From an uncultured Gammaproteobacteria bacterium (lineage in GTDB: Bacteria; Patescibacteriota; Microgenomatia; UBA12405), in NCBI GenBank assembly GCA_964544275.1, contig CAZIZX010000004.1, forward strand, positions 20,251-84,250: a stretch of DNA of 64,000 nt, given 5' to 3'. The stretch's first letter is position 1; the number at the start of each line of letters is the position of its first letter. The notes under the pieces are model-generated. The model was not told where the DNA came from and ran no database searches. It saw only the letters and a list, made by a program, of their open reading frames with translations. Both the position numbers and the translations under genes were made by a program. Shown piece after piece: positions 1 to 43,181 of the stretch.

Positions 1-237
1 CTTGTTTTGTCCGTAATATTTCAGCTCACCTTTTCTATTTATTACAGTAGCGAAATCATTAATCAAAATAACAACTACTATCAAAATCAAATTAAACTTG
101 AGGAACTCAAAGAACAGCACCAAATTCTGGAAAATCGGCTTTCCCAAATTACTTCAATCAATCATCTCCAGCAGCAAGTCCTCAAACTTAATCTCGTTCC
201 CATTTCCCAACACATCAACCTAAACATCTCACCATGA
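1..237 (+). CDS. FtsL-like septum formation initiator, 5'-partial at the window edge
   Basis: The reading frame is open back to nt 1, while the listed ORF starts at TTG nt 7. The product is rich in coiled-coil heptads. The stop overlaps the ftsI start (ATGA at 234-237). It sits directly upstream of ftsI, as ftsL does in dcw clusters. Confidence 0.4.
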   Translation, partial: LVLSVIFQLTFSIYYSSEIINQNNNYYQNQIKLEELKEQHQILENRLSQITSINHLQQQVLKLNLVPISQHINLNISP

Positions 238-1883
238 ATCAGCAACGCTCCAAAATACTTCTAATCACCCTTCTTCTAATCTTCTTATCAGTCTTAGCCC
301 GCTTGTTTTACTGGCAAGTAATTATGGGTCCGCAACTCAAGGAAAAAGCTCTCTCCCAAACCTACAAACTCCAAAAAAAATTGCCCCAAAGAGGCAAAAT
401 ATTATCCAGCGATAAATATCCGCTTGTTTTAAACCAAAAAAATTATCAACTGTCAATTTACAAACCCAACTTAACCATAGACCCAGATCTGGCCATCTCC
501 AAAGTAGAAGCGGTCAAGCCGGAATTTTCTCAAACCGACAATAGTACCTCAAAGTTTTTTTTGTCTACCGAAAATCAAAAATGGCAAACATTTCTTACTC
601 TTTTTAACAAGGAAGACCTCGAGTCACTAAACAACCCTGGCTTTAGCTTTCAGGAAATAAACAAGCGACTTTATCCAGAAAATAACCTAGCTAAAGATAT
701 TTTAGGTATTGTTGGCAAAAACTCCCAGGGTAATGACATTGGTTACGGCGGCTTGGAGGGTTACTATAATAAACAACTCAAAGGTAAAACTGGCTTTTCC
801 TGGATCACCACCGATGCCACCGGCAAAACCATACTCACCAAAAAAAGTTGGCAATCTGAAAATTATGACGGGTTAGACCTCCACACCCACATAGACCGTC
901 GTGTTCAATATCAAATTGAAAATATTTTAACCCAAGGAATCGACAAGTACTCAGCTGACTCCGGTTCTATCACGGTCATGGATAGCAAGACCGGGGCTAT
1001 TATCGGCATGTCCAGCCTTACTGCCACTAGTTCGGCTACCCCCAGCGCCACCAAAAATCCGGCCATCGCCGATCTCTTTGAACCAGGATCAATTTTTAAA
1101 CCTCTGATAATGGCTATGGCCCTTGATAGTAAAAGTATTGACCCGGATTTTATTTGTAACCAGTGCGACCGACCCCGAACTATCGGCCAATACACTATAA
1201 ATAATTGGAACTTAGAAACGTATCCCAATTCCACCATCTTCGACATTATCAGAAACTCAGACAATATTGGTATGAGCTCAATAATCAATCGCTTGGGCCT
1301 GGAAAAATTTCTGTCTTATTACAAAACATTGGGACTTAACCAAAAAACAGGGATTGACCTTCAGGGTGAAGCCAAGCCTCCCATGAAAACCCACTGGCCT
1401 GAAATCGACCTGGCTACAGCTTCTTTTGGCCAAGGTTTTGCCACCACCCAAATTAATATGCTTCAATCATTCAACGTCTTGGCTAACAATGGTGTTCTGG
1501 TTCGTCCCCACGTCTTAGATTTTCTTGACGATAACGGCAAAAAAATTACCACTCCCCACAATCAAGTCGAAACTGTCTTTGATACGAAAACTACCGATCT
1601 TATCAAAGAAATACTAAAATTCTCTGTTGAGAACAGCGCCGTGTCCAAGCTAAAACCAGCTCATCTAGAAGCTTGCGCCAAAAGCGGCACGGCTCAAGTA
1701 TCAATCCAAGGAGAATACGTCGACTCATCTACTATTGCCTCATATATCGGTTTCTCTCCCTGCGACAATCCCAAATTTACCATGATCGTTACTATCAACA
1801 ACCCCAAAACATCTCCTTACGGGTCCAGTACCGCCGCCCCCATCTGGTTCGACTTGGCTTCGATCATTACCAATCTGTTATAA
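234..1883 (+). CDS. ftsI: Peptidoglycan D,D-transpeptidase FtsI (class B PBP)
   Basis: N-terminal TM helix. Transpeptidase motifs SxxK (GSIFKP), SxN (RNSDN) and KSGT are present. dcw context. Confidence 0.85.
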   Translation: MNQQRSKILLITLLLIFLSVLARLFYWQVIMGPQLKEKALSQTYKLQKKLPQRGKILSSDKYPLVLNQKNYQLSIYKPNLTIDPDLAISKVEAVKPEFSQTDNSTSKFFLSTENQKWQTFLTLFNKEDLESLNNPGFSFQEINKRLYPENNLAKDILGIVGKNSQGNDIGYGGLEGYYNKQLKGKTGFSWITTDATGKTILTKKSWQSENYDGLDLHTHIDRRVQYQIENILTQGIDKYSADSGSITVMDSKTGAIIGMSSLTATSSATPSATKNPAIADLFEPGSIFKPLIMAMALDSKSIDPDFICNQCDRPRTIGQYTINNWNLETYPNSTIFDIIRNSDNIGMSSIINRLGLEKFLSYYKTLGLNQKTGIDLQGEAKPPMKTHWPEIDLATASFGQGFATTQINMLQSFNVLANNGVLVRPHVLDFLDDNGKKITTPHNQVETVFDTKTTDLIKEILKFSVENSAVSKLKPAHLEACAKSGTAQVSIQGEYVDSSTIASYIGFSPCDNPKFTMIVTINNPKTSPYGSSTAAPIWFDLASIITNLL

Positions 1884-1884
1884 T

Positions 1885-3207
1885 TTGTTGCTTTACATGT
1901 CAACAACCAAGCTGGGCATTTTTATCCAAAAGTTCAAAAATATTTTTTGGCACCTCCCCAAAAGTATATTTTTTAGTTACCTATATTCTTTCCCTTCCAA
2001 AAGATTTATTCTTATCGGTGTCACCGGCACCGACGGCAAAACAACTACCAGTACTCTCATTTATCACACTCTCCAAAAAGCCGGCTATAACACCGGCCTG
2101 ATAACCACCATTGGCGCCAAAATCGGAGATAAAGAAATCAGCACCGGCCTCCACACCACCAGTCCCGACCCTTCAATCATTCAAAAACTCTTCCAGGATA
2201 TGGCCAAAACCGGAATTACTCACGTTGTCTGTGAGGTTACTTCTCATGCTCTTGACCAGTACCGTTTTTGGGGCTGTGATTTTGATGTTTCCCTTCTCAC
2301 CAATATTTCCCACGAACATCTAGATTACCACCAAAATATAGATAACTACATCGCTTCCAAATCACGATTGTTCCGTCAATCCCGACATTCCATTCTCAAC
2401 AAAGACGACCTATCCTATCAACCCATAAAAAACTCTGTCAAATCTACCGTTTCCACCTATAGCATTACCAGTAAATCTGATTTTCAAGCCAAAAATATCA
2501 AATTAGGCCAAAAATTAACATTCCAGGTAAACAATATCAAACTCTCTACCGACAGCAATTATTACTATCAAGTCTACAACATTACCTCTGTTCTGGCACT
2601 GATGTCTCACTTAAAAATTGATATAAATTATCTGCTCAATACCATTAAAACGTTTCCGGAAACCAAAGGCAGAAGAGAAAGAGTGGTAAACGACTCAAGC
2701 ATAAACACTATTATCGATTTTGCCCACACTCCGGCAGCTTTGAAATCGACGCTCACTTCTCTAAAAAAGACTAACAAAGGCAAACTTTTAGTCATATTCG
2801 GCGCCACTGGAGGTCGCGATCCATCCAAAAGACCACTTATGGGTCAAGTAGTCTCACAAAATTCTGACATCGCCTTTATAACCGCCGACGATACTAGGGA
2901 TGAAAATATCTTCGACATAAACAAACAAATTATTTCCGGTATCGACCCACAAAAATCAATACTAATCGACAGCAACTCTACCACTCTCAACAAAATCAAA
3001 AAAATCATCTCTGCCAACAGCAAAAAATTTATTTATTTTAGTGTTCCCAACCGCCAGGACGCTTTTGACCTAGCCGTTAAACTGGCTCAAAATAATGATA
3101 CTATCGTCGCCTGCGGCAAAGGTCATGAAACCACCATACTCCACGGTCAAACTGAATATCCCTGGTCGGAACAGGAAGCCTTTAGAACCGCTTTTAGATC
3201 AAAATAA
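1885..3207 (+). CDS. murE: Mur ligase, MurE-like (UDP-MurNAc-tripeptide synthetase)
   Basis: P-loop 'IGVTGTDGKTTT'. Mur ligase middle and C-terminal regions. The position after ftsI is typical of murE. Substrate assignment rests on position only. Confidence 0.7.
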   Translation: MLLYMSTTKLGIFIQKFKNIFWHLPKSIFFSYLYSFPSKRFILIGVTGTDGKTTTSTLIYHTLQKAGYNTGLITTIGAKIGDKEISTGLHTTSPDPSIIQKLFQDMAKTGITHVVCEVTSHALDQYRFWGCDFDVSLLTNISHEHLDYHQNIDNYIASKSRLFRQSRHSILNKDDLSYQPIKNSVKSTVSTYSITSKSDFQAKNIKLGQKLTFQVNNIKLSTDSNYYYQVYNITSVLALMSHLKIDINYLLNTIKTFPETKGRRERVVNDSSINTIIDFAHTPAALKSTLTSLKKTNKGKLLVIFGATGGRDPSKRPLMGQVVSQNSDIAFITADDTRDENIFDINKQIISGIDPQKSILIDSNSTTLNKIKKIISANSKKFIYFSVPNRQDAFDLAVKLAQNNDTIVACGKGHETTILHGQTEYPWSEQEAFRTAFRSK

Positions 3208-3828
3208 ATGATTACCTCCTTCAATATCACCACTTCTACCGACATCGAAAAAAACTACAACCTTGGATTGCTTCCTCAAAGAAACAACAAAAACCTTTTT
3301 TATCAGGAAAGTTCTGCTCGCTCAAACCTAGCCCGTTTTTCCATTAGTTCAGAAAACAGAAGGATTATTCGCAAAACTGAAAGCTATTCTTTCCAAAAAA
3401 TTCCACTAAATCAATTTTCCTATACACCCCAAATCCAAAAAACAATTAAAAGTTGGATCAAAGATTTAAGCTGGGATTTTCCTGTTGCCTCGGTCAAAAA
3501 CATTTTTACCAACCATATTTTTAACTATCTCTATATCTGGTCAGATTCGTCCGGAAAAACAATTGCCTACGCCATCTGTTTTTTTTCTGATACTATTTCC
3601 CACATTGCTTATGTTTTTTATGATCCCAAAGTATCTCACCACGACCTTCCCATCCGCCTGGTGATTCAATTTATCCAAGATAGCTTTAATTTAAAATTAA
3701 AATATTCTTATCTTGGCAGATTTTCTAAAAATACGGGCTATTACAAAAGGAACATGCCAGGTCTGGAATTCTTTGTAAATGGTAATTGGATTGAATATAA
3801 TAAAGAAAACCAACAATTACTTGCCTAA
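3208..3828 (+). CDS. ATE_C/Bpt-like aminoacyl-tRNA--protein transferase family protein (GNAT-like fold), function unknown
   Basis: The motifs 'FSISSENRRIIRK', 'SHIAYVFYDP' and 'YSYLGRF' resemble the conserved 'F-S-(K/R)SQRRVLRKN', 'S(S/A)VY-FYDP' and 'YYLGYY' blocks of arginyl/leucyl-tRNA-protein transferases (ATE1/Bpt). The comparison is from memory only. The gene is wedged between murE and the next Mur ligase. Confidence 0.4.
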   Translation: MITSFNITTSTDIEKNYNLGLLPQRNNKNLFYQESSARSNLARFSISSENRRIIRKTESYSFQKIPLNQFSYTPQIQKTIKSWIKDLSWDFPVASVKNIFTNHIFNYLYIWSDSSGKTIAYAICFFSDTISHIAYVFYDPKVSHHDLPIRLVIQFIQDSFNLKLKYSYLGRFSKNTGYYKRNMPGLEFFVNGNWIEYNKENQQLLA

Positions 3829-3833
3829 AAATC

Positions 3834-5228
3834 ATGCATATTCACATCGTCGGTATAGCCGGCACCATGACAGCACCCTTAGCTGTTGCCCTAAAAAACC
3901 AAGGTCACCATATCACCGGTTCTGACCAACAACAAATTTTTCCTCCAGTTAGCCATATTCTCAAAAAAGCCCAAATAAAGATCAATACTCAAAACATTAT
4001 CAATAGTCAAATTGATCTGTGCATTATCGGCTCGTCTTACCTCTCATTTGCCAACACCCGACAAGAATTTGATACCATCAAAAAACTAAAACTCCCCTAC
4101 ATATCAGCCACCGAATATATTGCCCAAAACGTTTGTAAAAATAATTCTATACTCGTTGCCGGAACATACGGTAAAACTACCATAACCAGCCTGATTTCTT
4201 GGATACTCATTCGCGCTCAATACCAACCCAGCTTCATGTTTGGCGGTGAACCCAAAAACAATATCCCCTCGCTTCAAATTCAAAATTCTGACTGGTCAAT
4301 AACAGAAGCCGATGAATCCATAAATGGCCTTGACCTCCAAGGGAAATTTCTTTACTACCCCCTAAAATATCTCCTGCTTACCAGTGCTGACTGGGAGCAC
4401 AAAGAATCCTACCTCAAAGAAAGTGATAATTTTTCAGCTTTTTCCCGATTAATAAAAAAAGTTCCTAAAGCTGGTTTTCTGGTTCTCAACTCTCAGGGCA
4501 CAAACATTCTTAAACTCTCAAAACTCACTCCGGCCAAAGCAATCTTCTATAATTCTAATTCCTCATCCTATTTCATCAAAAATACCACCAAATCTAACCA
4601 CCGCACCCTAATTACAATAGCCACCCCAAAAGGGGATTTAACCGTAATTAGCCGGCTCTGGGGTCAATTTAATTATGAAAATATTTTGGCGGCCGTTACC
4701 CTGACCAGCGAACTCGGGATCGACCCTTTAATTATTAAAAAAGCCATAGCCAGTTATAAAGGCATCAAAAGAAGACTTGAACTTTTAAATTTCTCCAATA
4801 ACATCCATTTTTTTGATGATTTTGCTCAATCGGCTTCCCGGATTCAATCCGTCATCGACAGCCTCAAACAAGAGTTTCCCCAATCAAACATAAAAGTATT
4901 TTACGAACCTCACGCCTCATATATGAAAAATAAAAACAGCCTACCTCAACTCAAGCCAGCTTTCAAAAATGCGTCCGAAATAATCATCGGAAAAATTAAT
5001 TACACCTCAACTAGTGATAAAATTAATCGGGTTACGGCAACGGACCTCAAAAAATCAATTGGCAACAATTCAACATATCTGCCTCTTTATGATCAGGTCT
5101 TTCGTCATTACACCCAAAACCTCAAACCCAATGACATTCTGATTCACATGAGTTCTGGCGGTATCTTAGGACTAAATACCTACAAAAAAATTATAAATTA
5201 TTTCAATAATGTCAAGATACATCGTTAA
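3834..5228 (+). CDS. murC: Mur ligase, MurC/Mpl-like (UDP-MurNAc--L-Ala ligase family)
   Basis: The N-terminus 'IHIVGIAGTMTAPLAVALKNQGHHITGSD' resembles the MurC/Mpl Rossmann start. P-loop 'VAGTYGKTT'. Overlaps murA by 20 nt. Confidence 0.65.
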   Translation: MHIHIVGIAGTMTAPLAVALKNQGHHITGSDQQQIFPPVSHILKKAQIKINTQNIINSQIDLCIIGSSYLSFANTRQEFDTIKKLKLPYISATEYIAQNVCKNNSILVAGTYGKTTITSLISWILIRAQYQPSFMFGGEPKNNIPSLQIQNSDWSITEADESINGLDLQGKFLYYPLKYLLLTSADWEHKESYLKESDNFSAFSRLIKKVPKAGFLVLNSQGTNILKLSKLTPAKAIFYNSNSSSYFIKNTTKSNHRTLITIATPKGDLTVISRLWGQFNYENILAAVTLTSELGIDPLIIKKAIASYKGIKRRLELLNFSNNIHFFDDFAQSASRIQSVIDSLKQEFPQSNIKVFYEPHASYMKNKNSLPQLKPAFKNASEIIIGKINYTSTSDKINRVTATDLKKSIGNNSTYLPLYDQVFRHYTQNLKPNDILIHMSSGGILGLNTYKKIINYFNNVKIHR

Positions 5229-6552
5229 TGGTGGCCACCCTCTAAAAGGTGAAGTTTCAATCAGAGGCGCCAAAAACGCCAGTTTTAAGCAAATAATCGC
5301 TTCCATGCTCTCCGATCAAAATACTCAACTTACTAATATTCCTCAAATTTCAGACGTTAGAATAACCCAAAGCATTGCCAGTAAACTCGGTGCCCAAATT
5401 ACCCAAACTGGAGAACATAGTATAGAAATCGTCACTCCCAAATTTATTTCAGACACCGTACCTCATGGTACTGGTCAAAAATCCCGAACCTCTTTTATGT
5501 TTGCTGCACCTCTTCTTGCCAGAAACGGCAGCGCCGTTGTTCCCTTTCCCGGAGGCGACAAATTAGGTGACAGGCCTCTGGACCGCCTGTTTGATTGTCT
5601 CGAGCAAATGAATATCAATATAGAAATAAAAGACGATTTAATTTTTTTCAAAACAGATCGTATCAAACCAACCCATTATCGCTTTCCCAAACCGTCTCAC
5701 ACTGTCACCGAAACAATTCTTATGCTCGCCGCCACCGCCAACGGTGAAACTATTTTAGATAATGCCGCTCTCGAACCTGAAATTGATGACTTAATCGACA
5801 TGCTCAATTCTATGGGAGCCAAAATTAACCGCGATAATTCAAATCCGAGCAAAATAATTATCCAAGGAGTACCTTGGCTCAATGGAACTAAACACCAGGT
5901 AATTTGTGATCGAAATGAATCGGTCACCTTCGCCTGTGCCGCTCTCGCCACCAAAGGTTCGATCAATATTCTTAAAATAGATCCTGATACTATCAAGACC
6001 TTCCTGGAAATTATCGACCAAATGGGCGCCAAAATTAACACCGGCAAAGACGAAGTTTCCGTTAGTTGGGATCAACCATTAAAATCTATATCTATCGAAA
6101 CATCTCCAGAACCCGGATTTATGACCGACTGGCAGGCAGTTTTTTCTGTTCTTCTAACTCAAGCCGTCGGCTGTAGTTCTATCATCGAAAGAGTCTTCCC
6201 CAACCGCTTCCAACACATTGAATACTTAAAACAAATGGGGGGCAAAATTAAACCGTTTAATCCCGAAAACACCCATCCTGATTTTTACTTTTTTAATCAG
6301 GAAAGTGATCGACCAGAATTTCAGCATGGTATCAAAATTTATGGACCAACCAAACTTATGCCCGACAATCTAGTGGTCAATGACCTTCGGGCCGGTGCTT
6401 CTGTAACACTTGCAGCCCTAGTAGCCTCCGGTCAATCGATAATTGATGGCGTCGAATATATTGAGAGGGGATACGAAAAACTGGCCGAAAGACTCAGCTC
6501 TCTTGGCGCCAGCATAGAATATATCAAAACCTCTTTAGTTCGACCCATTTAA
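5209..6552 (+). CDS. murA: UDP-N-acetylglucosamine 1-carboxyvinyltransferase
   Basis: The N-terminus 'IVNGGHPLKGEVSIRGAKNA' and the overall EPT-family length are MurA-like. The active-site Cys/Asp position was not checked. Confidence 0.9.
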   Translation: MSRYIVNGGHPLKGEVSIRGAKNASFKQIIASMLSDQNTQLTNIPQISDVRITQSIASKLGAQITQTGEHSIEIVTPKFISDTVPHGTGQKSRTSFMFAAPLLARNGSAVVPFPGGDKLGDRPLDRLFDCLEQMNINIEIKDDLIFFKTDRIKPTHYRFPKPSHTVTETILMLAATANGETILDNAALEPEIDDLIDMLNSMGAKINRDNSNPSKIIIQGVPWLNGTKHQVICDRNESVTFACAALATKGSINILKIDPDTIKTFLEIIDQMGAKINTGKDEVSVSWDQPLKSISIETSPEPGFMTDWQAVFSVLLTQAVGCSSIIERVFPNRFQHIEYLKQMGGKIKPFNPENTHPDFYFFNQESDRPEFQHGIKIYGPTKLMPDNLVVNDLRAGASVTLAALVASGQSIIDGVEYIERGYEKLAERLSSLGASIEYIKTSLVRPI

Positions 6553-6581: not shown

Positions 6582-7616
6582 ATGACCCACTTATACTTAG
6601 GACTCCTGCTTTTCTCCTTTTTTATTACCAGCATTTTAGTAGTTCCCTTCATCAACTTACTTTACAAACTAAAATTCCAACGGCAAAAACAAAAAACACT
6701 TGATTTCCAAAACGAACGCACTCCTACTTTCGACAAGTTTCACTCATCCAAATCCGGTACACCTATTGGCGGTGGCATTCTCATCATCTGCTCAGTTTCC
6801 CTGCTCTTCTTTTTCCTCCTGCCCATCCTCAAGTTTTCCAACATATTCATCTCCAGCAATTACCAAATCAACCGAGAAATCGAAATCTTATTTTTTACCT
6901 TTATCAGTTTTGGCTTGCTTGGTTTGTACGACGACGTTAAAAAATTCTTTGATTTCAAAATTAGCGGCTTTTTTGGCCTTCGCATGCGACAAAAATTTTT
7001 ACTTCAGGTCTTTTTGGCCCTGATAATATCCTCACTCATCTACTTCAGACTCAACATAAACTTTATTTACATTCCTTTTCTTGGTCCGCTAACTTTGGGT
7101 ATATTCTTCATCCCCATATCTGTTTTCTTTATTATTGCCTTTGCTAATTTTTTTAACATTACTGACGGCCTGGACGGACTTTCGTCAGGACTTCTGATGA
7201 TAGCCCTGTTTGCCTTTTGGTTTATCTCCAATACCTCACTCGACACTCCCATTTCACTCTTTCTTGCCCTCTGGCTTGGAAGTTTAATCGCCTTTCTCTA
7301 TTTCAATGTTTACCCCGCCAGAATTTGGTTAGGAGATGTTGGCTCGCTTTCCTTCGGAGCTACTTTTGCAGTTATTGCCATTCTTTTGGGAAGAATAGTG
7401 CCCCTATTAATTGTCGGTTTCCCCTTTATTGTTGAAGGCGTAAGCAGTGCTATTCAGATTGTCAGCAAAAAATATTTCAACAAAAGAATTATTCCGGCCG
7501 CACCACTTCATTTGACCCTTCAAAAAATGGGCTGGGAGGAACCAAAAATTGTTTCCCGTGCTTGGTTGGCCGGTATCATACTGGCAATATTTGGCTTATG
7601 GTTAGGTCTAAACTAA
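6582..7616 (+). CDS. mraY: Phospho-N-acetylmuramoyl-pentapeptide transferase
   Basis: Polytopic membrane protein. Motifs 'DDVKKF', 'NITDGLDGL' and 'NVYPARIWLGDVGSL' are typical of MraY. Confidence 0.9.
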   Translation: MTHLYLGLLLFSFFITSILVVPFINLLYKLKFQRQKQKTLDFQNERTPTFDKFHSSKSGTPIGGGILIICSVSLLFFFLLPILKFSNIFISSNYQINREIEILFFTFISFGLLGLYDDVKKFFDFKISGFFGLRMRQKFLLQVFLALIISSLIYFRLNINFIYIPFLGPLTLGIFFIPISVFFIIAFANFFNITDGLDGLSSGLLMIALFAFWFISNTSLDTPISLFLALWLGSLIAFLYFNVYPARIWLGDVGSLSFGATFAVIAILLGRIVPLLIVGFPFIVEGVSSAIQIVSKKYFNKRIIPAAPLHLTLQKMGWEEPKIVSRAWLAGIILAIFGLWLGLN

Positions 7617-8269
7617 ACACCAAACTATCAAATGAAGCCGAGCGTTATCTCGGGCTCCCTTATTGGCAAAACCGTCTAATCGACGGCAAAATTACCAAAG
7701 AAGGTTTTATGGGCGGCAAGGGCAACTGGCATCAAATCAACCAGGCCACAAAAGAACTGCTCTCCAAACTACCCCACAAACCACCTTCCTCTGAAATTTA
7801 TAACCTTCAAAAAAAGAACCATATTGGCATCGACTGTTCTGGTCTAGCCTATAATTTACTCAACTTTCTCTCGCTTGAAACAAAACAAAAAAGCATTGAG
7901 GAAAAAGTTGTCGGAACAGGAGGTAAATTTGGCATCAGGCGCGTCTCCTCAAATCTATTAACTTCGCCAGCAAACTCCATCCCAGTAACTTCTTATCAAA
8001 ACATTCAGCCGGGAGATTTAATCAGACTGGAAAAAGGTAGGCATGTAATTGTTATTTTAAAAAAAGTCGGCAACACCATAAATTATATTCACAGTAGCAA
8101 CAAAACCCTGATCCGGGGAGTCCACCTTGGCACTATTAAAATAATCAACCCCAAAGCTACTCTGGAACACCAGCACTGGATCGAAACCACCAAAGACAAC
8201 CAACCTTACTCTTCCTTGTTTAATTCCCAAAATGGCGACGGTATTTTCCGTCTCAAATGTCTAAGTTAA
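7562..8269 (+). CDS. NlpC/P60-family cysteine peptidase (cell-wall hydrolase)
   Basis: Catalytic Cys in 'IGIDCSGLAYN'. A downstream 'GDLIRLEKGRHVIVIL...IHSS' His block is NlpC/P60-like. The annotated start overlaps mraY by 55 nt, so the true start may be an internal Met (e.g. MGGKG). Confidence 0.5.
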   Translation: MVGRYHTGNIWLMVRSKLNTKLSNEAERYLGLPYWQNRLIDGKITKEGFMGGKGNWHQINQATKELLSKLPHKPPSSEIYNLQKKNHIGIDCSGLAYNLLNFLSLETKQKSIEEKVVGTGGKFGIRRVSSNLLTSPANSIPVTSYQNIQPGDLIRLEKGRHVIVILKKVGNTINYIHSSNKTLIRGVHLGTIKIINPKATLEHQHWIETTKDNQPYSSLFNSQNGDGIFRLKCLS

Positions 8270-8270
8270 A

Positions 8271-8438
8271 TTACTTTTCCTCAACTAATTCTTGGTACTT
8301 CAGTGGTTCTAGCAACAGAATCTCTACCTCAGTCCCACACTCATCACATTCCACAATATCTCCTACCGCCACATCAACCCCCAGTCTCTTCTCGTGCTTA
8401 CAATCAGGGCAAACAACTATTTTACTGTCTTTATTCAT
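8271..8438 (-). CDS. Small zinc-ribbon protein, LysW/amino-group-carrier-protein-like (55 aa, absent from the ORF track because it is under 60 aa)
   Basis: Reverse-strand translation gives MNKDSKIVVCPDCKHEKRLGVDVAVGDIVECDECGTEVEILLLEPLKYQELVEEK. It has two CxxC pairs. The pattern 'V.C..CG.E.E(I/V)..L(E/D)PL' recalls LysW. The acidic C-terminus ends EEK rather than EDWGE. It lies divergent to the PLP/ATP-grasp pair. Confidence 0.5.
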   Translation of the reverse strand: MNKDSKIVVCPDCKHEKRLGVDVAVGDIVECDECGTEVEILLLEPLKYQELVEEK

Positions 8439-8479
8439 CTTTTAATGTCAAAATATATTAAGTATCACAATTATAACCC

Positions 8480-9295
8480 ATGACACCTCTAGACCACACT
8501 TCTAATCTCTACTTCAAAAGGGAAGATCTGAATCCAACCGGATCGGCCAAAGATCGGGCTATTAGTCAACAGATAGAAAACCTCGTCCGTAAAAACTTTC
8601 ACTCCGCCGTCATATCCAGCTCAGGCAATGCCGCCATTTCTGCCATCCATTACTGCCAACAATCAAATATTCCATTGACCATATTTTTGTCACCCAAAAT
8701 TGATCCCAACAAACTTAAACTTATTCAGCAAAGACACCCTAAAATTCACTTTTCTCCAAAACCTGTCAGCGACGCCTTTAAATTTTCCAAAGCTAATTCT
8801 TCCTATTATCTTCGTCAATCAACAGATCCAACCGCCCTCAAAGGTTACCAGCAAATATCCAAAGAACTAATCAGCCAATTACCCCAAATCACCAGTATCT
8901 TCATCCCGGTTGGTAGCGGCACCACCCTCCTCGGCCTAAGTCAAACTCTGCCTAACAACGTCAAAATATTTGCCGCCCAGCCAGCATCCTATTGTCCCAT
9001 TAGCTCCCTTTTTGATCGCGATTACCAACCGGAGCAATCAACTATCACCGACGCCCTCTCCGTCAAATCCCTACCGCTTAAATCAAGCGTCATAACCGCC
9101 ATCAGACAATCAAGAGGGCGGGGGATTGTGGTCCAAAATCAATCCGTTATGGACGCCCAAACCACTCTTCTTAATTTGGAAATAAACTGTTCTCCAGAAG
9201 GCGCGCTTGCTTATGCTGCTTTCCTTAAAACTCAAAAAATCAAATCAGACCCGGGTAATTACCCGGTTATTCTTATTACCGGCACCCAAAGATGA
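8480..9295 (+). CDS. PLP-dependent enzyme, fold type II (threonine synthase / Trp-synthase-beta superfamily), short form
   Basis: 'FKREDLNPTGSAKDR' matches the PLP-lysine motif of threonine synthase, cysteine synthase and Ser/Thr dehydratase. At 271 aa it is shorter than ThrC. Its stop overlaps the start of the next gene (ATGA). Confidence 0.6.
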   Translation: MTPLDHTSNLYFKREDLNPTGSAKDRAISQQIENLVRKNFHSAVISSSGNAAISAIHYCQQSNIPLTIFLSPKIDPNKLKLIQQRHPKIHFSPKPVSDAFKFSKANSSYYLRQSTDPTALKGYQQISKELISQLPQITSIFIPVGSGTTLLGLSQTLPNNVKIFAAQPASYCPISSLFDRDYQPEQSTITDALSVKSLPLKSSVITAIRQSRGRGIVVQNQSVMDAQTTLLNLEINCSPEGALAYAAFLKTQKIKSDPGNYPVILITGTQR

Positions 9296-10455
9296 CCCGA
9301 CTGATAGATCAACTCAATAACAGTCACTTTATCTTCTACTTCCTGGTAGTCGATAATTTTTTGGATATCAGCTTGCCGGAACTAAAAAACTTTCACTTAA
9401 TCTACGCTTCCAAAAATCAAAATCTAAAAAGTCTCAAAAAAAACAACTTACCCTATTTTTGCCTCGAAGAACAAGGTATAAAACTCGATACCAAAAATTC
9501 CGGCAAACTTTTATCCCACAAACTGGTCGCTGAATATATAAAAAAGACCAGCCATGCTTCCAAGCTAACCCCAGCTATCATTCCTTTCAAACCATCCGCC
9601 AAAATCGATCATCTTTGTCGACTACACAAATGGACCCTGGTCAGTAATCCCTCAAAAGTCAACCGCCAGTTAGAAGACAAAATTAAATTTCCCCAAATTT
9701 GTCAACAGTTCAACATACCCGTCCTCCCTTTTTCCATTGGCAAACTTACTCAAAAAAATTTTCAGAAACATCAGCAATTATTCGGTCCGGACCTGGTCGT
9801 CCAAACCCATTTTGGCTGGGCCGGGAATAGCACTCACTACGCCAATACCTTCAGCAAAATTTCGAAATTAATTCCAACCGATACGCTGGTCAAATTTTCT
9901 CCCCTCATGGAGGGTTACACCCTAATAAACAATTGCTGCCAGACACATCTCGGTCTAATTCAAAGCCCTCCCGGTTTTCAGTTAACCGGAATCAAATCCT
10001 TGACCCAAAACCCTTTTGCCACCGTTGGTCGGCAATGGCCCTCTACCGCCCCACCAAATATCCAAAAGCAAGTCAGAAAAATAACCAACCAATTTTCTAC
10101 TCTTTTATCAAAATATAAATACCGCGGCTTTTTTGGACTGGACTTCTTTGTCTCCAAAGACCAAGTCTACCTCCTGGAGTGCAATCCTAGGTTAACCGCC
10201 TCTTTTTCCTTCTATACCCAATTAGAAAAAAACGCCAAAATTACACCTTTATTCTATTACCATCTAGCTGAGTTTATTAGCCAAAATTATAAATTTAATT
10301 ATACTTTACAAAAATACCGTTTTAATAATACCTCTATCGTTGGGACCGAACTGACACCCAAAAACAAAAATAACGTTACTATCCAAAAAATTCATATACC
10401 ATCAACTGTTCATTCGGTTCAGAATATTCCGAATCTCTCCATTAATCTCCCTTGA
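9292..10455 (+). CDS. ATP-grasp ligase (Ddl/CPSase-like C-terminal ATP-binding block), function unknown
   Basis: The C-terminal 'YRGFFGLDFFVSKDQVYLLECNPRLTASFSF' matches the ATP-grasp E-x-N-(P) Mg/ATP block ('R.DFF...YLNEIN..PG' in Ddl, 'EMNPR' in CPSase-like enzymes). The N-terminal half is divergent. It occupies the murD/ddl position in the dcw cluster. Confidence 0.55.
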   Translation: MTRLIDQLNNSHFIFYFLVVDNFLDISLPELKNFHLIYASKNQNLKSLKKNNLPYFCLEEQGIKLDTKNSGKLLSHKLVAEYIKKTSHASKLTPAIIPFKPSAKIDHLCRLHKWTLVSNPSKVNRQLEDKIKFPQICQQFNIPVLPFSIGKLTQKNFQKHQQLFGPDLVVQTHFGWAGNSTHYANTFSKISKLIPTDTLVKFSPLMEGYTLINNCCQTHLGLIQSPPGFQLTGIKSLTQNPFATVGRQWPSTAPPNIQKQVRKITNQFSTLLSKYKYRGFFGLDFFVSKDQVYLLECNPRLTASFSFYTQLEKNAKITPLFYYHLAEFISQNYKFNYTLQKYRFNNTSIVGTELTPKNKNNVTIQKIHIPSTVHSVQNIPNLSINLP

Positions 10456-11630
10456 AAATGAACAAGTCTCAAAATAGATATATTCTTCCCCTGGTTACTT
10501 TTTCCTTGGTTTTAATTGGCTTAATTTTTATATCAGTTTCGTCTCTCTCCGAAGCCTCTTCCACTACCGGCAATAAATTTTTCTTTATCGAAAAGCAACT
10601 AATTTGGCTGGGATTAGGCCTAATCTGCTTTTATTTTTTCTCCAAAATCAAAATATCCACCATCCAAAAAATGTCTTTCCCTCTATACATTGTCTCGATA
10701 ATAACCTTGGTTCTGGTTCTCATTCCTACTCTGGGAAATCAGGCATTAGGTGCCAGACGTTGGCTGGATTTAGGCATTATCGGCATTCAGCCCTCCGAAA
10801 TTGTTAAATTCACCTCCATAATCTACTTCTCCTTCCTTTTCTCAAAAGAAAACAAAAGAAACATGAAAAACCTGATTATCTACTTGGCTATTCCTTTCAT
10901 TCTAATTCTTCTTCAGCCCAATTTAAGCACAGCCATCCTGATTTCTACCATCGTCATTTCCGTCTATTATCTGGCCGGCGGCGAAATTATGTCCCTCTTT
11001 CTTCTCTGCATTTCCACCGCTTTTTTGAGCCTATTATTAATATTCACCTCCTCCTACCGGCTTGCCCGATTTAGAACTTTAATCAACCCCCAGGAAAACA
11101 CCACTTCCGCCTCCTATCACAGCAATCAAATAATTTTAGCCCTCGCCTCAGGAGGCTTTTTTGGTAAAGGTGTTGCCAACTCAGATCAAAAATACCGCTA
11201 TATTCCCAAAGTTTCTACCGACTCGATTCTGGCGGTTATCGGAGAAGAGACCGGCTTTATCGGCACCGGTTTAATCGTTCTAATTTACCTCTACCTGATC
11301 ACCTACCTTTTTAAATTAGCCCAAAAAATCACCGACCCGTTCCAGTCTCTCTTCGTCAGTAGTACCGCCTGCTGGATCGGTTATCAATGTTTAATTAACA
11401 TTTCAGCTATCGTCGCCATCATCCCTCTAACCGGCGTTCCTCTTCCTTTCATCTCCTATGGCGGATCTTCTCTCATCACTCTACTTTCAGCCATCGGTCT
11501 GGTTAGAAATATCGAAAAAAACAATGCCAAGCTGATATACTCAATTAGTGAACCAGAAAGTAAAGACCATCCTGATAACCGGCACCCACATTACCCCGGC
11601 CGTCGAGCTCATCAACCAACTCAAAAATGA
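10452..11630 (+). CDS. ftsW: SEDS-family peptidoglycan glycosyltransferase FtsW
   Basis: About 10 TM helices. Motifs 'ARRWLDLGIIGIQPSE' and 'IPKVSTDSILAVIGEETGFIG' are SEDS-like. Sits between the mur genes and murG. Confidence 0.85.
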   Translation: MKMNKSQNRYILPLVTFSLVLIGLIFISVSSLSEASSTTGNKFFFIEKQLIWLGLGLICFYFFSKIKISTIQKMSFPLYIVSIITLVLVLIPTLGNQALGARRWLDLGIIGIQPSEIVKFTSIIYFSFLFSKENKRNMKNLIIYLAIPFILILLQPNLSTAILISTIVISVYYLAGGEIMSLFLLCISTAFLSLLLIFTSSYRLARFRTLINPQENTTSASYHSNQIILALASGGFFGKGVANSDQKYRYIPKVSTDSILAVIGEETGFIGTGLIVLIYLYLITYLFKLAQKITDPFQSLFVSSTACWIGYQCLINISAIVAIIPLTGVPLPFISYGGSSLITLLSAIGLVRNIEKNNAKLIYSISEPESKDHPDNRHPHYPGRRAHQPTQK

Positions 11631-14239: not shown

Positions 14240-15406
14240 ATGGCACTAATAAAAACACTGGCCGGACAATTCGCCAAAATGAAAGTTATCGGAGTGGGTG
14301 GGGGTGGAAATAATGCCATTAACTCCATGATATCCGAAGAGGGAATAACCGGAGTCGACTTTATCTCCATCAATACCGACTCCCAAGCCCTCCTAAACTC
14401 TCTCGCTCCCATAAAAATACAATTAGGTGAAAAATTAACCAAAGGCTTAGGCGCTGGTGGTAACCCTCAAATAGGGGAGGAGGCCGCCGAAGAATCCCGG
14501 GAAAGAATCAAAGAAATTCTCGAAGGTACTGACATGGTCTTCATTACTGGCGGCATGGGCGGAGGCACCTGCACCGGAGCCGCTCCTATAATCGCCGAAA
14601 TTGCCAAAAAAGAACTAGGGATTCTCACCATTGCCGTTGTCACCAAACCCTTTCTTTTTGAAGGTACCCGTCGCATGACCAATGCCGAAGAAGGTATTTC
14701 CCGTCTTCGTGAAAATGTTGACACTTTGATTGTCATCCCCAACCAAAAAGTCATGGATATAGTCAACGACAAAGCCACTCTCCTCGAAGCTTTCAAGATT
14801 GCCGACTCTGTTTTGAACAAAGGCACCAAAGCCATTGCCGAGCTGATTACCACTCCTGGCCTTATTAATCTCGATTTTGCCGATATCAAATCAATCATGA
14901 GCAACGCCGGATCGGCACTTATGGGAGTAGGGGAGGCCGAAGGCGACAATCGATCCAGGAATGCCGTTATTGCCGCCATTGATTCCCCGCTGGTCGAAGT
15001 CAATATCGAAGGCGCTCGCGGAGTTTTAATTAACATCAGTGGTGGACCTGATTTGACCATGGCCGAAATCGAAGAATCAGCCAAAACTATTACCGAACAC
15101 ACCGCCCCCGATGCCAATATTATTTTCGGTGCCACCATCGACAATAATCTCAAAAACAAAGTCAAAATTACTGTTATCGCCACCGGATTCGACCAACGGC
15201 CCAAACTTTTTCAGCCAACCTCAAAACCCCTTCAATCCCAAACACCCCCTCCCTCCAAACAGCCTGAACTTATTAAAACCGATCACGAAAATAAAACCGC
15301 GACTGACCCCAAAATAAAACAAATTATCAACGAAGATGATCTGCCTCAAGGAGTCGATATTGTTGATGAATTTGATATTCCCGCTTTCCTTCGGAAGAAT
15401 AAATAA
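14240..15406 (+). CDS. ftsZ: Cell division GTPase FtsZ
   Basis: 'GVGGGGNNAIN' and the tubulin signature 'TGGMGGGTCTGAAP'. Disordered C-terminal tail. Confidence 0.95.
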   Translation: MALIKTLAGQFAKMKVIGVGGGGNNAINSMISEEGITGVDFISINTDSQALLNSLAPIKIQLGEKLTKGLGAGGNPQIGEEAAEESRERIKEILEGTDMVFITGGMGGGTCTGAAPIIAEIAKKELGILTIAVVTKPFLFEGTRRMTNAEEGISRLRENVDTLIVIPNQKVMDIVNDKATLLEAFKIADSVLNKGTKAIAELITTPGLINLDFADIKSIMSNAGSALMGVGEAEGDNRSRNAVIAAIDSPLVEVNIEGARGVLINISGGPDLTMAEIEESAKTITEHTAPDANIIFGATIDNNLKNKVKITVIATGFDQRPKLFQPTSKPLQSQTPPPSKQPELIKTDHENKTATDPKIKQIINEDDLPQGVDIVDEFDIPAFLRKNK

Positions 15407-23465: not shown

Positions 23466-24155
23466 ATGAAATCGGTTGTCTATTTCTTTTTTACCTTATT
23501 CTTGTTTGTAACCACCAGCCTCCTTTTAACCCAAAATTATTGGCCTCAAATGTTTTCTGTCCAAGACCCAATCGATCCCGACAATTTAATCGAAAAGTTC
23601 AGTACTTCCACCACTGGAATATTTGACAACAAACAGGTACCTGTTCCTAAGTATTCATACAGCAACCCACTCATCCTGGGTGATCAATCCGATGACCATG
23701 TCCAAAAAAGAATTGAGGTCGACCTGACTACTCAACGTTTATACGCCTACGAAAACGACGCCTTGATATTTAACTTCATTGTTTCTACTGGCAAATGGGA
23801 CCGAACTCCTACCGGCACATACAAAATATGGACCAAAATACGATCCCAAAAAATGTCCGGTGGCTCAAAAGAATTAGGAACCTATTATTATTTACCCAAC
23901 GTTCCTTTTATTCTATTTTTTTATAACGAAAAAGTTCCCAAATCTGTAGGTTATAGCATTCACGGTACTTATTGGCACAATAATTTTGGTGTTCCCATGT
24001 CCCACGGCTGTGTCAACATGAAAACAACCGAAGTTGAACAAATTTTCAACTGGGCTGACCATAATACGCCCATTACAATTTACGGTAAATACGAAACCAA
24101 ACTTCCCGACGCCAACCTCAACCCTAAATATTCTACTCTAATTTCTAAAATCTAA
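23466..24155 (+). CDS. L,D-transpeptidase (YkuD domain), membrane-anchored
   Basis: N-terminal TM helix. Catalytic 'HGTYWHNNFGVPMSHGCVNM' (His...SHGC). Confidence 0.8.
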   Translation: MKSVVYFFFTLFLFVTTSLLLTQNYWPQMFSVQDPIDPDNLIEKFSTSTTGIFDNKQVPVPKYSYSNPLILGDQSDDHVQKRIEVDLTTQRLYAYENDALIFNFIVSTGKWDRTPTGTYKIWTKIRSQKMSGGSKELGTYYYLPNVPFILFFYNEKVPKSVGYSIHGTYWHNNFGVPMSHGCVNMKTTEVEQIFNWADHNTPITIYGKYETKLPDANLNPKYSTLISKI

Positions 24156-26569: not shown

Positions 26570-27445
26570 ATGGTAGATATTTCACATCATGTCAATAAGC
26601 ATGTTGGAGTAATTATCGTAAACTTTAACTCGACTACATTTCTAAATAAATTAATCCAATCACTTAGTCACATATCACAAGTCATCAACGAAATAATTAT
26701 TGTTGATAATAATTCGCAAGACATTAACAAACTAAAAACAGATAAAAACATCACTTTAATCAAAAAAACAAAAAATGTCGGGTTTGCAAAAGCGGTAAAT
26801 CAAGGCATAAAAAAATCTAAAAGCAAATTTATCCTATTAGTTAATCCAGACTGCCTCATTATTGACGATTCGATAATTGGCCTTATTAAAAAAATAAGCT
26901 CCGATAACAACATAGGAGTAATAGGTGGCAAAATACAGAACTATCACAATTCGGAATACCAACCAACGGCTAATACAAAACCAACATTTCTTACAGCTTT
27001 GTTTGAATTTACTAATCTGAAAAAAATATTTCCAAATAATACATATACAAAAAGGTTTTGGGTTAATGATAAGCAAATCACTAACGATACGGAAGTTGAT
27101 AGTCTATGCGGAGCATTTCTAATATTTAGAAAAATAATCAATAAAAGATTAAACCTTTTTGATGAAAACTACTTTCTTTACCTCGAAGATGTAGATTTTG
27201 GCTTAAAAAATAAAAAGGAGGGCTACAAGGTTGTTTACTCTCCTGACGCCACAATAAAACACCTGGGCGGCGCGAGTAATAATAGCAAATACAACACAGC
27301 GCTAAAGTATTGGTATAAATCAAGAAAGTACTTCTATACAAAACATAGCAATAAAATCGTAGCTATAATTTTATTGCTTTTATTCTCTACAGAAGAAAAC
27401 TTATTAAAAATCTACCACTTTCTTAAAAATGAACCAATTTATTAA
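26570..27445 (+). CDS. Glycosyltransferase family 2
   Basis: 'VIIVNFNS', 'IIVDNNSQD' (DxD) and 'GFAKAVNQGI' are GT2-like. Confidence 0.75.
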   Translation: MVDISHHVNKHVGVIIVNFNSTTFLNKLIQSLSHISQVINEIIIVDNNSQDINKLKTDKNITLIKKTKNVGFAKAVNQGIKKSKSKFILLVNPDCLIIDDSIIGLIKKISSDNNIGVIGGKIQNYHNSEYQPTANTKPTFLTALFEFTNLKKIFPNNTYTKRFWVNDKQITNDTEVDSLCGAFLIFRKIINKRLNLFDENYFLYLEDVDFGLKNKKEGYKVVYSPDATIKHLGGASNNSKYNTALKYWYKSRKYFYTKHSNKIVAIILLLLFSTEENLLKIYHFLKNEPIY

Positions 27446-28205
27446 CCTTACTCTCCTCCTCATCACCAAGAATGAATCAGAAAACCTAAAGAATTATTTT
27501 AGCTGGCTAGATCAGTGCCCCAGAATTAACGAAATTATCGCCGTCGACGACAATTCGGAGGACAACACTAAACAAATTCTAAAATCTTTAGGAAGCAAAA
27601 GTCGTCAAGTAAAAATTTTCAACAGAAAACTGAATGGTAATTTTTCTGCCCAACGACAATTTGCCACCTCAAAGTCCTCCAACAATTGGATCCTCTGGCT
27701 CGACGCTGACGAAAACCCAGACGATAAATTAATTACAATTCTAAATCATATTGATCTACATCAATATTTTAATTTTTCTTTCAAAAGATCGGATGTATTT
27801 CTTGGACATCTGTTAAAACACGGCGAAACATCCTCTCAAACTTTTTTAAGATTATTCAACAAAAAATATGGTCAATTCAAAGGTAAAGTCCACGAAGTGT
27901 GGTCAAGTACCAAACCAACACAAATCAGAAACGATCTGACAATTCTCCATTACTCTCATCTCAACCTAAGCGCATTTCTCCAAAAAATAAATTTCTATAC
28001 CGACATCCGAGCTCAGGAATTATTTGATAGGGGAGTACGATCAAGCCTTTTTCAAATAATTTTTTATCCTTCCGCCAAATTCATTCAAAACTATTTCTTT
28101 CGTCTCGGATTCCTTGATTCCACTCCAGGAATAATTCTAGCTCTCGGCATGAGTTTTCATTCGTTTCTAGTACGATCTAAACTATGGCACTTACAGCAAA
28201 AATAA
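27429..28205 (+). CDS. Glycosyltransferase family 2-like
   Basis: 'LLITKNESENL...IAVDDNSEDNT' is a GT2 N-terminal DxD region. Confidence 0.6.
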   Translation: MNQFINLTLLLITKNESENLKNYFSWLDQCPRINEIIAVDDNSEDNTKQILKSLGSKSRQVKIFNRKLNGNFSAQRQFATSKSSNNWILWLDADENPDDKLITILNHIDLHQYFNFSFKRSDVFLGHLLKHGETSSQTFLRLFNKKYGQFKGKVHEVWSSTKPTQIRNDLTILHYSHLNLSAFLQKINFYTDIRAQELFDRGVRSSLFQIIFYPSAKFIQNYFFRLGFLDSTPGIILALGMSFHSFLVRSKLWHLQQK

Positions 28206-29266
28206 CTCTCTATTTAACTCTACTCGTCTTCTCTTTTGGTCAATTGTTCCGACTTCACATTTTCTCAACTTCCTTTCCACTCCTCGATATCACCATACTC
28301 TCCCTCTTTATAACCAATATTATTTATCTCGAAAAATCAAATCAACTGAAGATAAAAAATAAACCAATTTTCTTTTTTCTAATATTTTCCTGGATTACCT
28401 ATTTAATAAATTGTCTAAGCAATTCATTCTTTTATTTATCCTCACTTTTTTATCTTATCCGACTTAATGTTCTGCTATCATTCTTTGTTTTTCCGATTAG
28501 CCCCAAACTTCTTGACCGTAGCTTCAACCGGTATTTCTCATTATTTTTACTTTCCTGTGTCATCTTTGGCCTCATACAATACCTTCTCTGGCCCGACTTC
28601 ACCTATTTTGATTCTCTAAACTGGGATCCACACTTATATCGTCTAGTTGGCACCTTTTTTGATCCCACCTTTACTGCTCAAATATTTCTGTCATTCCTCA
28701 TTTTTTTATTTGTTAACAATAACTATAAAATAAATTTTTCCATCGTTATAACATATCTCGCCCTAGCTCTTACCTACAGTCGCTCTGCTCTCTTAGGATT
28801 CGTCATCGCATTCTCATTCATATCTTTTAAAACTAAAAATCCCAAAACTTTCTTCGTCAGCCTAATAATCTTCTTGCTAACTCTATTGGCACTTCCCAGA
28901 ATGCCGGGAGAAGGAACTAAGCTGGAAAGAACCTCGTCCATCAAAGCCAAAATTGAGAATTATCAGGAAGCCATCAAGCTAATCCCTACGTCTCCAGTAA
29001 TTGGTATCGGCTACAATAATATCGCTCATTATCGTACCATTACCGATCCTAATTCACATGCTAATTCCGCCTTTGACTCCTCCTTGATCAACATTCTCAT
29101 CACCACCGGAATTATTGGACTGAGTCTATTTGTCATCGGTTTAACAACTTTTTTCAAGAAAGCCACTCTCGTCCAGCAAACAATCCTCGTCTCACTTTTA
29201 TTCCACTCACTTTTTGCTAATTCTCTATTTTACCCCTGGACACTACTCATCCTGTTTCTTGTCTAA
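28184..29266 (+). CDS. O-antigen ligase/polymerase-like (Wzy_C) polytopic membrane protein
   Basis: More than 10 TM helices. The loop 'LALALTYSRSALLGFVIAF' resembles the Wzy_C motif. Confidence 0.55.
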   Translation: MALTAKITLYLTLLVFSFGQLFRLHIFSTSFPLLDITILSLFITNIIYLEKSNQLKIKNKPIFFFLIFSWITYLINCLSNSFFYLSSLFYLIRLNVLLSFFVFPISPKLLDRSFNRYFSLFLLSCVIFGLIQYLLWPDFTYFDSLNWDPHLYRLVGTFFDPTFTAQIFLSFLIFLFVNNNYKINFSIVITYLALALTYSRSALLGFVIAFSFISFKTKNPKTFFVSLIIFLLTLLALPRMPGEGTKLERTSSIKAKIENYQEAIKLIPTSPVIGIGYNNIAHYRTITDPNSHANSAFDSSLINILITTGIIGLSLFVIGLTTFFKKATLVQQTILVSLLFHSLFANSLFYPWTLLILFLV

Positions 29267-43122: not shown

Positions 43123-43181
43123 GATCCACTATAATCATAGTACTACATAAAGTCTTCGTCATATACTGTCAAGCAATGGCT

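Follow-up and report, generated by a model that had tools for sequence, protein, structure and literature searches.

The closest described relatives of the system considered here are the LysW/ArgW carrier systems (LysW-X-Z-Y-J-K of Thermus, Sulfolobus and Thermococcus, and the AmCP of Streptomyces), in which a zinc ribbon of about 50 amino acids with an acidic C-terminal tail is encoded alongside an ATP-grasp ligase, an enzyme for modification and a hydrolase. The cargo of LysW is carried on the gamma-carboxyl of its C-terminal Glu. A LysW homologue with a comparable set of partners is encoded in the division and cell-wall (dcw) cluster of a patescibacterial genome, between mraY and ftsW, in a stretch of 64,000 nucleotides (contig CAZIZX010000004.1, positions 20,251 to 84,250; the window). 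The likeness suggests a shared logic of loading, modification and release. However, the carrier of this module ends in Lys instead of Glu, with a tail that is about five residues shorter; the ATP-grasp protein is not of the RimK/LysX type and there are no homologues of LysZ, LysY, LysJ or LysK; the partners are instead a fold-type-II pyridoxal 5'-phosphate (PLP) enzyme, a NlpC/P60 peptidase and, in other lineages, MurD; and the context is peptidoglycan rather than lysine or arginine. The nearest known kind is the LysW amino-group carrier system, with which the module shares its fold and probably its logic, whereas the reactive residue, all of the partner enzymes and the pathway differ. Literature searches turned up no account of such a system, nor a paper that joins LysW with MurD or peptidoglycan.

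What is the module for? The four genes very probably constitute a single module of stem-peptide synthesis that is centred on the carrier, and in this respect the earlier view, that the genes work together in the making of peptidoglycan precursors, agrees with the synteny across about 80 species and with the gene fusions. The module may, more tentatively, serve the second-residue (D-glutamate) step. The cytoplasmic synthesis of the stem peptide (MurC to MurF, together with MurI, Alr and Ddl) is considered close to universal, and it is an important target of antibiotics. Should the proposed role prove true, there would be a second route, based on a carrier protein, by which D-glutamate is supplied or incorporated; a LysW-like carrier would for the first time have a role beyond lysine, arginine and secondary-metabolite synthesis; and a recurrent annotation in the Patescibacteria would be corrected.

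The LysW-like mini-protein and its three partners

The module occupies positions 7562-10455, and its four open reading frames (ORFs) lie between mraY and ftsW just where a preliminary description of the window had placed them:

7598-8269, plus strand: cytoplasmic cysteine peptidase/amidase of the NlpC/P60 family, 223 amino acids; the ORF is open from a TTG at 7562 and overlaps the end of mraY
8271-8438, minus strand: LysW-like zinc-ribbon mini-protein (putative carrier), 55 amino acids, with CPDC...CDEC motifs and an acidic tail, ...PLKYQELVEEK, whose last residue is Lys
8480-9295, plus strand: minimal fold-type-II PLP enzyme (PALP), 271 amino acids, with the Schiff-base Lys in NPTGSAKDR and an SS(S/T)GNAA substrate loop
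9292-10455, plus strand: ATP-grasp carboxylate-amine ligase, 387 amino acids, with a three-domain fold and an intact D284/E296/N298/R300 block

The mini-protein has the zinc-ribbon domain (CxxC...CxxC) of the LysW family, passing the cutoff of the Pfam model Zn_ribbon_LysW (PF21344; 32.3 bits, cutoff 27). Its best match in the PDB is Thermus LysW (3wwl, E 2e-6), followed by 5k2m_E (E 1e-5), and it falls below the cutoffs of TIGR01206 (27.7 bits vs 53) and NF041070. A spurious antisense ORF is ruled out, since the codon-position entropy (30.9/20.3/61.9) marks the minus strand as the coding strand; no frame of the opposite strand is open in more than 34 of the 74 loci. The tail ends in ...ELVEEK and not in the Glu-ending ...EDWGE of LysW. 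Lys is the last residue in all 74 distinct orthologue sequences of the Shapirobacteria type (EEK in 70, EQK in two and ETK in two) and in 64 of 66 diverse metagenomic loci, the other two ending in EEKG. (EGK is typical of the loci with an ATE-like gene and EEK of those with MurD, both described below.) The EEKG tails favor the side chain of this Lys over its alpha-carboxyl as the functional group. The carrier of loci L123 and L124 (6725-6919, minus strand, tail ...VVIEEKG) is the only one with a residue after the conserved Lys. The preliminary description had recorded the zinc ribbon as a curiosity; its presence stands, but the near-invariant Lys tail makes the mini-protein the probable centre of the four-gene system.

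The carrier gene is separated by 41 bp (8439-8479) from the divergent PLP gene and by 1 bp from the convergent NlpC gene (8269-8271), and is so tightly packed on the minus strand that its transcript must overlap the flanking plus-strand operon. Nearly all loci share this orientation, the exceptions being a few of the MurD type with the gene on the same strand as its neighbors. Carriers like those of loci L096 and L097 are labelled 'lysine biosynthesis protein LysW' by NCBI and JGI (in Patescibacteria and Gracilibacteria); by their context and Lys terminus, this label is probably a misannotation.

In the ATP-grasp protein, the GLDFF...YLLECNPR block is verified, and the Mg/ATP-binding D/E/N residues and the catalytic R of the ExNxR block are set in the three-domain fold of the superfamily. 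Sequence families give only weak and partial matches (ATP-grasp_3; NCBIfam PRK06524, 92 bits vs a cutoff of 684). A structural model from a 40-sequence alignment (predicted local distance difference test, pLDDT, 92.9) aligns with a biotin-carboxylase domain over 332 of 387 residues and shows a normal ATP-grasp N-domain, where the N-terminal half had been called divergent. The closest folds are PurK/biotin carboxylase and L-amino-acid or peptide ligases: a Streptomyces peptide ligase (fold-comparison score 24.4), the L-amino-acid ligase BL00235 (23.8), BesA (23.5), PGM1 (23.2) and PylC (21.2) come next, while Ddl reaches only about 18.5 and LysX/ArgX about 16.5. The comparison rules out a LysX orthologue. 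It also does away with the Ddl-like ligase of the preliminary description, as well as with the ordinary Ddl with a normal N-domain that had been considered as an alternative to it: Ddl is not the closest fold, the sequence models of Ddl do not match over their full length, and the match that there is to Ddl is weak and local. To judge from the structural model, the protein is neither a LysX nor an ordinary Ddl but a carboxylate-amine ligase that is complete and has its catalytic residues intact. Among its nearest folds, BesA, PylC, PGM1 and the L-amino-acid ligases acylate an amine with the carboxyl of an amino acid. The protein collection holds 562 homologues, of which the top 120 are at least 50% identical; all taxon-named entries among these 120 are Patescibacteria, save one labelled Methanoperedens. 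One 458-residue ATP-grasp protein (P0196, at 10001-11377 of locus L090) scores above some module members with the family profile.

The PLP enzyme clearly belongs to fold type II (Pfam PALP, 151.7 bits, E 4e-44), with the K of GSAKDR and a PVGSGTT loop conserved. It has no N-terminal domain of the threonine synthase kind and is not a threonine synthase: the best ThrC model, PRK08329, gives 102 bits vs a cutoff of 358 and matches from profile position 65, and the enzyme stays under every equivalog cutoff for ThrC, dehydratase and CysK. In the PDB it is about equidistant from threonine dehydratase, ThrC, serine and aspartate racemases, and CysK/SbnA. The SSSGNAA and LR(P/Q)SxD motifs are kept across distant homologues; the loop of the window enzyme and of most distant homologues is SSSGNAA, that of most Shapirobacteria SSTGNAA. 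The Ser or Thr directly before GN is at the position of Ser84, the re-face base of serine racemase. The stop and start codons of the PLP and ATP-grasp genes overlap in ATGA, which confirms the translational coupling reported earlier; natural PALP::ATP-grasp fusions also exist.

The peptidase gene likely starts at the ATG at 7598. Its product consists of a helical N-terminal region of about 75 amino acids and a C-terminal papain-like domain, and its model (pLDDT 96) matches MepS, CwlO, LytE, a YkfC-like protein and a gamma-D-Glu-L-diamino-acid endopeptidase. The Cys and His are invariant, and the Cys-His-polar triad is that of the papain-like peptidases of clan CA, family C40. It does not look like a secreted autolysin: there is no signal peptide or cell-wall-targeting domain, and the N-terminus (MVRSKLNTKLSNEAERYLG) has no hydrophobic segment. 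The lack of a signal peptide implies that the peptidase acts in the cytoplasm. Its homologues in other lineages form fusions with MurD or ATP-grasp, which are cytoplasmic enzymes, and those from MurD-type loci contain a weak dipeptidyl-peptidase SH3 domain of the YkfC kind.

Conservation in the clade and recurrence elsewhere

The preliminary description regarded the four genes as an insertion. Synteny was followed, with flanks of 6-10 kb, in three metagenome contigs and in 80 GTDB species, of which most are Candidatus Shapirobacteria and Woesebacteria. The order murE - ATE-like - murC-like - murA - mraY - NlpC - LysW (minus) - PALP - ATP-grasp - ftsW - murG is kept wherever the contig is long enough, so the block belongs to the cluster as a constant component and is not an insertion. 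Within the flanks covered, none of the 80 syntenic loci has a murD. The same synteny, together with the fusions described below, rules out four unrelated passenger genes.

Three further members of this cluster, upstream of murA, bear on the module. Two of them, the ATE-like gene and its ligase neighbor, had been overlooked in the preliminary description:

1885-3207, plus strand: MurE without the N-terminal (UDP-binding) domain, 440 amino acids (TIGR01085, 348 bits, matching from profile position 75)
3208-3828, plus strand: ATE/Bpt-like protein (resembling the C-domain of arginyl/leucyl-tRNA-protein transferases), 206 amino acids, between murE and the murC-like gene
3834-5228, plus strand: divergent MurC/Mpl-like ligase, 464 amino acids, always adjoining the ATE-like gene

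The ATE-like protein may be a distant relative of the transferases: it matches Pfam ATE_C at 21.9 bits (E 3e-4), below the cutoff of 25, and the NCBIfam arginyltransferase models at E 4e-7, far below their cutoffs (a homologue at 9591-10283 in locus L085 gives E 5e-9). It has conserved motifs, and sequence and profile searches gave no match in the PDB. The adjoining ligase scores 234 bits with the murC model TIGR01082 (cutoff 335) and 177 bits with mpl, while its L085 orthologue scores almost equally with both (250 and 246). The two genes are co-conserved with the module in all forms without MurD, and the ATE-like gene is absent from all MurD-type loci seen. As for MurE, ftsI ends 1 nt upstream of it and leaves no room for an N-domain; its orthologues (434-441 amino acids) consist of the Mur_ligase_M and C domains only. 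The MurF of a related lineage (3672-4925 in L123) is also without its N-terminal UDP-binding domain, the MurE and MurF profile matches beginning at about 65-75. The MurC-like ligase retains its N-domain.

Beyond the clade, weak homologues of the NlpC-like protein and the ATP-grasp ligase led to distant loci with the module in other arrangements:

L084 (Gottesmanbacteria): NlpC - MurD - LysW (minus) - PALP
L085: MurB / ATP-grasp - NlpC - MraY - ATE-like - MurC/Mpl-like - NUDIX - LysW - PALP
L091: MurD (TIGR01087, 258 bits, cutoff 212) - LysW - PALP::ATP-grasp fusion
L092: MurD - LysW - PALP - ATP-grasp::NlpC/P60 fusion
L095: LysW - D-glutamate-cyclase-like + NlpC/P60 protein - MurD::PALP fusion - ATP-grasp
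L096: NlpC/P60::MurD fusion - LysW - PALP - ATP-grasp, outside any dcw cluster

There are four kinds of pairwise fusion: PALP::ATP-grasp (P0330 and P0236), ATP-grasp::NlpC/P60, NlpC/P60::MurD, and MurD::PALP (P0447, P0427 and P0442). A search with the MurD proteins of these loci gave more MurD::PALP fusions, Peregrinibacteria included, and more NlpC/P60::MurD fusions. The NlpC/P60 protein of L095 (6247-7953) carries an N-terminal D-glutamate-cyclase-like domain (PF14336, 174 bits), the one instance among the loci examined.

A metagenome scan with the PLP enzyme as query added 80 loci. Among these, 25 are of the MurD type (NlpC - MurD - LysW - PALP - ATP-grasp), with a G+C content of 38-75% and a range far beyond the candidate phyla radiation (CPR), and 20 are of the type with ATE-like and MurC/Mpl-like genes (33-50% G+C). 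None of these 45 typed loci has MurD and the ATE-like gene together. By neighborhood and by gene fusion, the module is linked either to MurD or to the transferase/Mpl-like pair. Could the ATP-grasp ligase itself be a replacement for MurD? This is weakened by the co-occurrence of the two in 18 of the 25 MurD-type loci. In three loci (L112, L123 and L124) the order is murC - murB - murA - murF - mraY - module - ftsW, with the genes of the module arranged as in the window. The gene between murA and mraY in these loci was considered as a candidate MurD, but NCBIfam identifies it as an N-truncated MurF; with murF present beside it, the module sits exactly in the slot of murD.

A possible role at the D-glutamate step

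Several considerations place the module at the D-glutamate step: the substrate of MurD is D-glutamate, one peptidase member bears a D-glutamate-cyclase-like domain, and the peptidase family typically cuts gamma-D-glutamyl-Lys/DAP bonds (DAP, diaminopimelic acid). On this basis the module might serve the addition of the second residue on the side-chain amine of the carrier Lys, a proposal that we consider possible but far from established. The PLP enzyme needs a free alpha-amine, so the cargo would have to hang by a carboxyl group. In the proposed cycle, the ATP-grasp ligase would activate a carboxyl of L-glutamate, most likely the gamma-carboxyl (as do MfnD and BesA), and join it to the epsilon-amine of the carrier Lys. 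The fold-II enzyme would then engage the tethered glutamyl unit through its alpha-amine, which is left free, and turn the L configuration at C-alpha into D. Acylation of the tethered D-Glu on its alpha-amine would follow, in most lineages by MurD with UDP-MurNAc-L-Ala, and finally the YkfC-like cytoplasmic NlpC/P60 enzyme would cut the gamma-D-glutamyl-lysine bond, releasing the product and freeing the carrier. (In a simpler variant, MurD would use free D-Glu that the peptidase has released.) Each of the four kinds of fusion joins steps that are adjacent in this cycle of loading, inversion, acylation and release.

The lineages of the window and of the L085 type, which have no murD beside the module, would need a different third step. 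The ATE/Bpt family targets N-terminal Glu or Asp, and here the ATE/Bpt-like protein could act as an aminoacyl-tRNA transferase that adds L-Ala to the tethered D-Glu, with the MurC/Mpl-like ligase later attaching the released unit to UDP-MurNAc. That murD has been lost in these lineages, and that L-Ala-D-Glu is built on the carrier with Ala-tRNA and passed to UDP-MurNAc by the Mpl-like ligase, in a bypass of both MurC and MurD, nevertheless seems improbable.

Compared with the LysW/ArgW systems, the polarity of the proposed cycle would be reversed, the carrier giving the amine and the cargo the carboxyl. Parts of the cycle have parallels elsewhere. Among the alternative routes to D-Glu (MurI, D-amino-acid transaminase, MurD2/MurL), isomerization may likewise be genetically tied to MurD, with ATP used outside the Mur ligation step; in Xanthomonas, L-Glu is reportedly ligated first and then epimerized with ATP (MurD2/MurL). 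However, no homology to MurI or MurL was seen in the module, whose chemistry would be PLP-dependent and which includes a protein carrier and a peptidase. Glutathionylspermidine synthetase/amidase (Gsp) and trypanothione synthetase (TryS) combine an ATP-grasp-type ligase and a papain-like (CHAP/NlpC-P60) amidase in one protein that makes and breaks the same kind of amide bond, and Gsp amidase and TryS are among the fold matches of the module peptidase. Their domain order is the opposite one, though, the sequence kinship is only at the superfamily level, and the substrate in the module is presumed to be a protein tail. YkfC/dipeptidyl-peptidase VI and Mpl resemble the cytoplasmic NlpC/P60 with SH3-like N-terminal parts (in the MurD type) and the MurC-like ligase with its nearly equal scores for Mpl, but they recycle free murein peptides, whereas the module enzymes are tied to a carrier, a PLP enzyme and an ATP-grasp ligase in a biosynthetic cluster. 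The CysO-CysM-Mec+/HcyS system also has a small carrier, an ATP-dependent activator, a fold-II PLP enzyme and a releasing peptidase. Its carrier is a ThiS-like thiocarboxylate, however, its activation is by adenylation and its peptidase is a JAMM metalloprotease, so that carrier, activator and peptidase are not homologous to those of the module.

A number of points weigh against the D-glutamate cycle. The choice of amino acid, the carboxyl used and the type of reaction of the PLP enzyme are, on sequence evidence, guesses. The PLP enzyme is no nearer to racemases than to dehydratases, ThrC or CysK, and in most Shapirobacteria the residue before GN is Thr and not Ser. Canonical NlpC/P60 substrates involve the alpha-amine of Lys or DAP, not the epsilon-amine. 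The complementarity of MurD and the ATE-like gene rests on limited flanks, and if murD and murI were present elsewhere in these genomes (the 64 kb and the flanks of 6-10 kb being what was covered), the route would be less needed. The close homologue P0196 of the ATP-grasp ligase occurs without carrier, PLP enzyme or peptidase, its neighbors being glycosyltransferase, NUDIX and PPDK_N-like genes; this could be a paralogue that serves a different role, or a case in which the module is dispersed.

Four other explanations have to be set beside the D-glutamate cycle, each of which accounts for fewer of the observations. In the preliminary description, the PLP enzyme was to supply a non-standard or D-amino acid and the ATP-grasp protein, as a Ddl analogue, to build the C-terminal dipeptide of the stem in place of Ddl and MurF, the NlpC/P60 protein and the zinc ribbon being accessory. 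The coupling of the PALP and ATP-grasp genes and their fusion in some organisms fit this well, as do the absence of murF and ddl from the window and the weak local match to Ddl; other lineages, however, pair the module with an adjacent or fused MurD, and a close relative keeps murF beside it, which together with the fold of the ligase makes such a partnership very unlikely. Racemase and ATP-grasp are also a known pair in the synthesis of D-Asp bridges (Racfm/Aslfm of Enterococcus faecium). By analogy, the PLP enzyme could racemize Asp, Ser or Glu for the ATP-grasp ligase to place on the epsilon-amine of Lys3 of the precursor, a reading with a small chance of being right. Serine and aspartate racemases are among the PDB matches of the PLP enzyme, acylation of a Lys epsilon-amine in the manner of PylC is found among the fold neighbors of the ligase, and a FemX-like part in bridge formation is conceivable for the ATE-like transferase. 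The mini-protein would then, with an equally small chance, be a regulator, primer or scaffold whose ...EEK tail mimics the ...D-Glu-Lys acceptor. Such a bridge system leaves unexplained why the PLP enzyme and the peptidase are fused to MurD, why a dedicated mini-protein co-occurs almost invariably, and why the module is found with MurD alone outside dcw clusters (L091, L092 and L096).

Beta-replacement is the commonest chemistry of fold-II enzymes, and SbnA, CysK and CysM are among the matches of the PLP enzyme, so that the carrier could instead be the template for a diamino-dicarboxylic acid: an aminoacrylate made from (phospho)serine would react with the epsilon-amine of the carrier Lys to give a lysinoalanine-like substitute for DAP, to be used by MurE. 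The logic is that of SbnA and of cysteine synthesis by CysO-CysM-Mec+, with which the set of carrier, ATP-dependent enzyme, fold-II enzyme and peptidase agrees, and CPR bacteria are without DAP and lysine synthesis. It is highly doubtful that this is what the module does, since the module is tied to MurD and not to MurE. Hardly more credible is the cycle that it would call for, in which the modified Lys is removed by NlpC/P60 and a new Lys is put back by the ATP-grasp ligase, as tubulin-tyrosine ligase does with Tyr: the EEKG tails would require two cuts, and the residue before the Lys varies (E, G, Q, T or M), an odd site for re-ligation. Salvage of host muropeptides, finally, would have the YkfC-like NlpC/P60 enzyme cleave imported L-Ala-gamma-D-Glu-Lys/DAP and the Mpl-like ligase and MurD reuse the pieces, with the other proteins trimming or re-activating them. 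The YkfC-like fold and SH3 architecture, the Mpl-like scores of the MurC-like ligase and the literature view of CPR bacteria as epibionts with little biosynthesis all point this way. Yet salvage leaves the carrier, the PLP enzyme and the ATP-grasp ligase without a role, and modules of the MurD type are found, too, at 65-75% G+C, in loci that are unlikely to belong to CPR epibionts; we would assign it a very slim chance indeed. The D-glutamate cycle, on the other hand, lends itself to experiment: all components of the module are small and soluble, and the proposal is testable in vitro and by complementation of a D-Glu auxotroph.

The cell-wall cluster and the rest of the window

The first 20 kb of the window are a co-directional division and cell-wall cluster in a CPR genome of low G+C content (about 41%). 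Besides the genes listed above, it comprises:

234-1883, plus strand: ftsI
5209-6552, plus strand: murA
6582-7616, plus strand: mraY
10452-11630, plus strand: ftsW
after 11630, plus strand: murG, ftsQ, ftsA, ftsZ, ileS and rodA

Searches of the 64 kb, among them scans with Pfam and NCBIfam, found no murD, murF, ddl, alr, murI or murB, in agreement with the earlier report that the first two are missing from the cluster; the only Mur ligases found in the window are MurE and the MurC-like protein. Most of the window has a strongly negative GC skew, which reaches -0.43 and is near zero or positive only at about 36-40 kb. With all genes in the first 20 kb on the plus strand, this makes the coding strand there unusually C-rich. 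(The minus-strand carrier gene is the exception.) A 245-residue ORF at 14467-15204 on the minus strand, antisense to ftsZ, is most likely a non-coding shadow ORF.

A gene for a YkuD-type L,D-transpeptidase (23466-24155, plus strand) suggests that the wall of this organism may contain 3-3 cross-links. Near it are a gene for a LysM protein (30196-30813) and glycosyltransferase/Wzy-like genes (26570-29266). Three ORFs, of 467, 211 and 283 amino acids, at 35982-37385 (plus strand) and 42487-44033 (minus strand) have no Pfam match, and those of 211 and 283 amino acids adjoin a gene for an AMP-binding (adenylate-forming) enzyme at 40965-42473.

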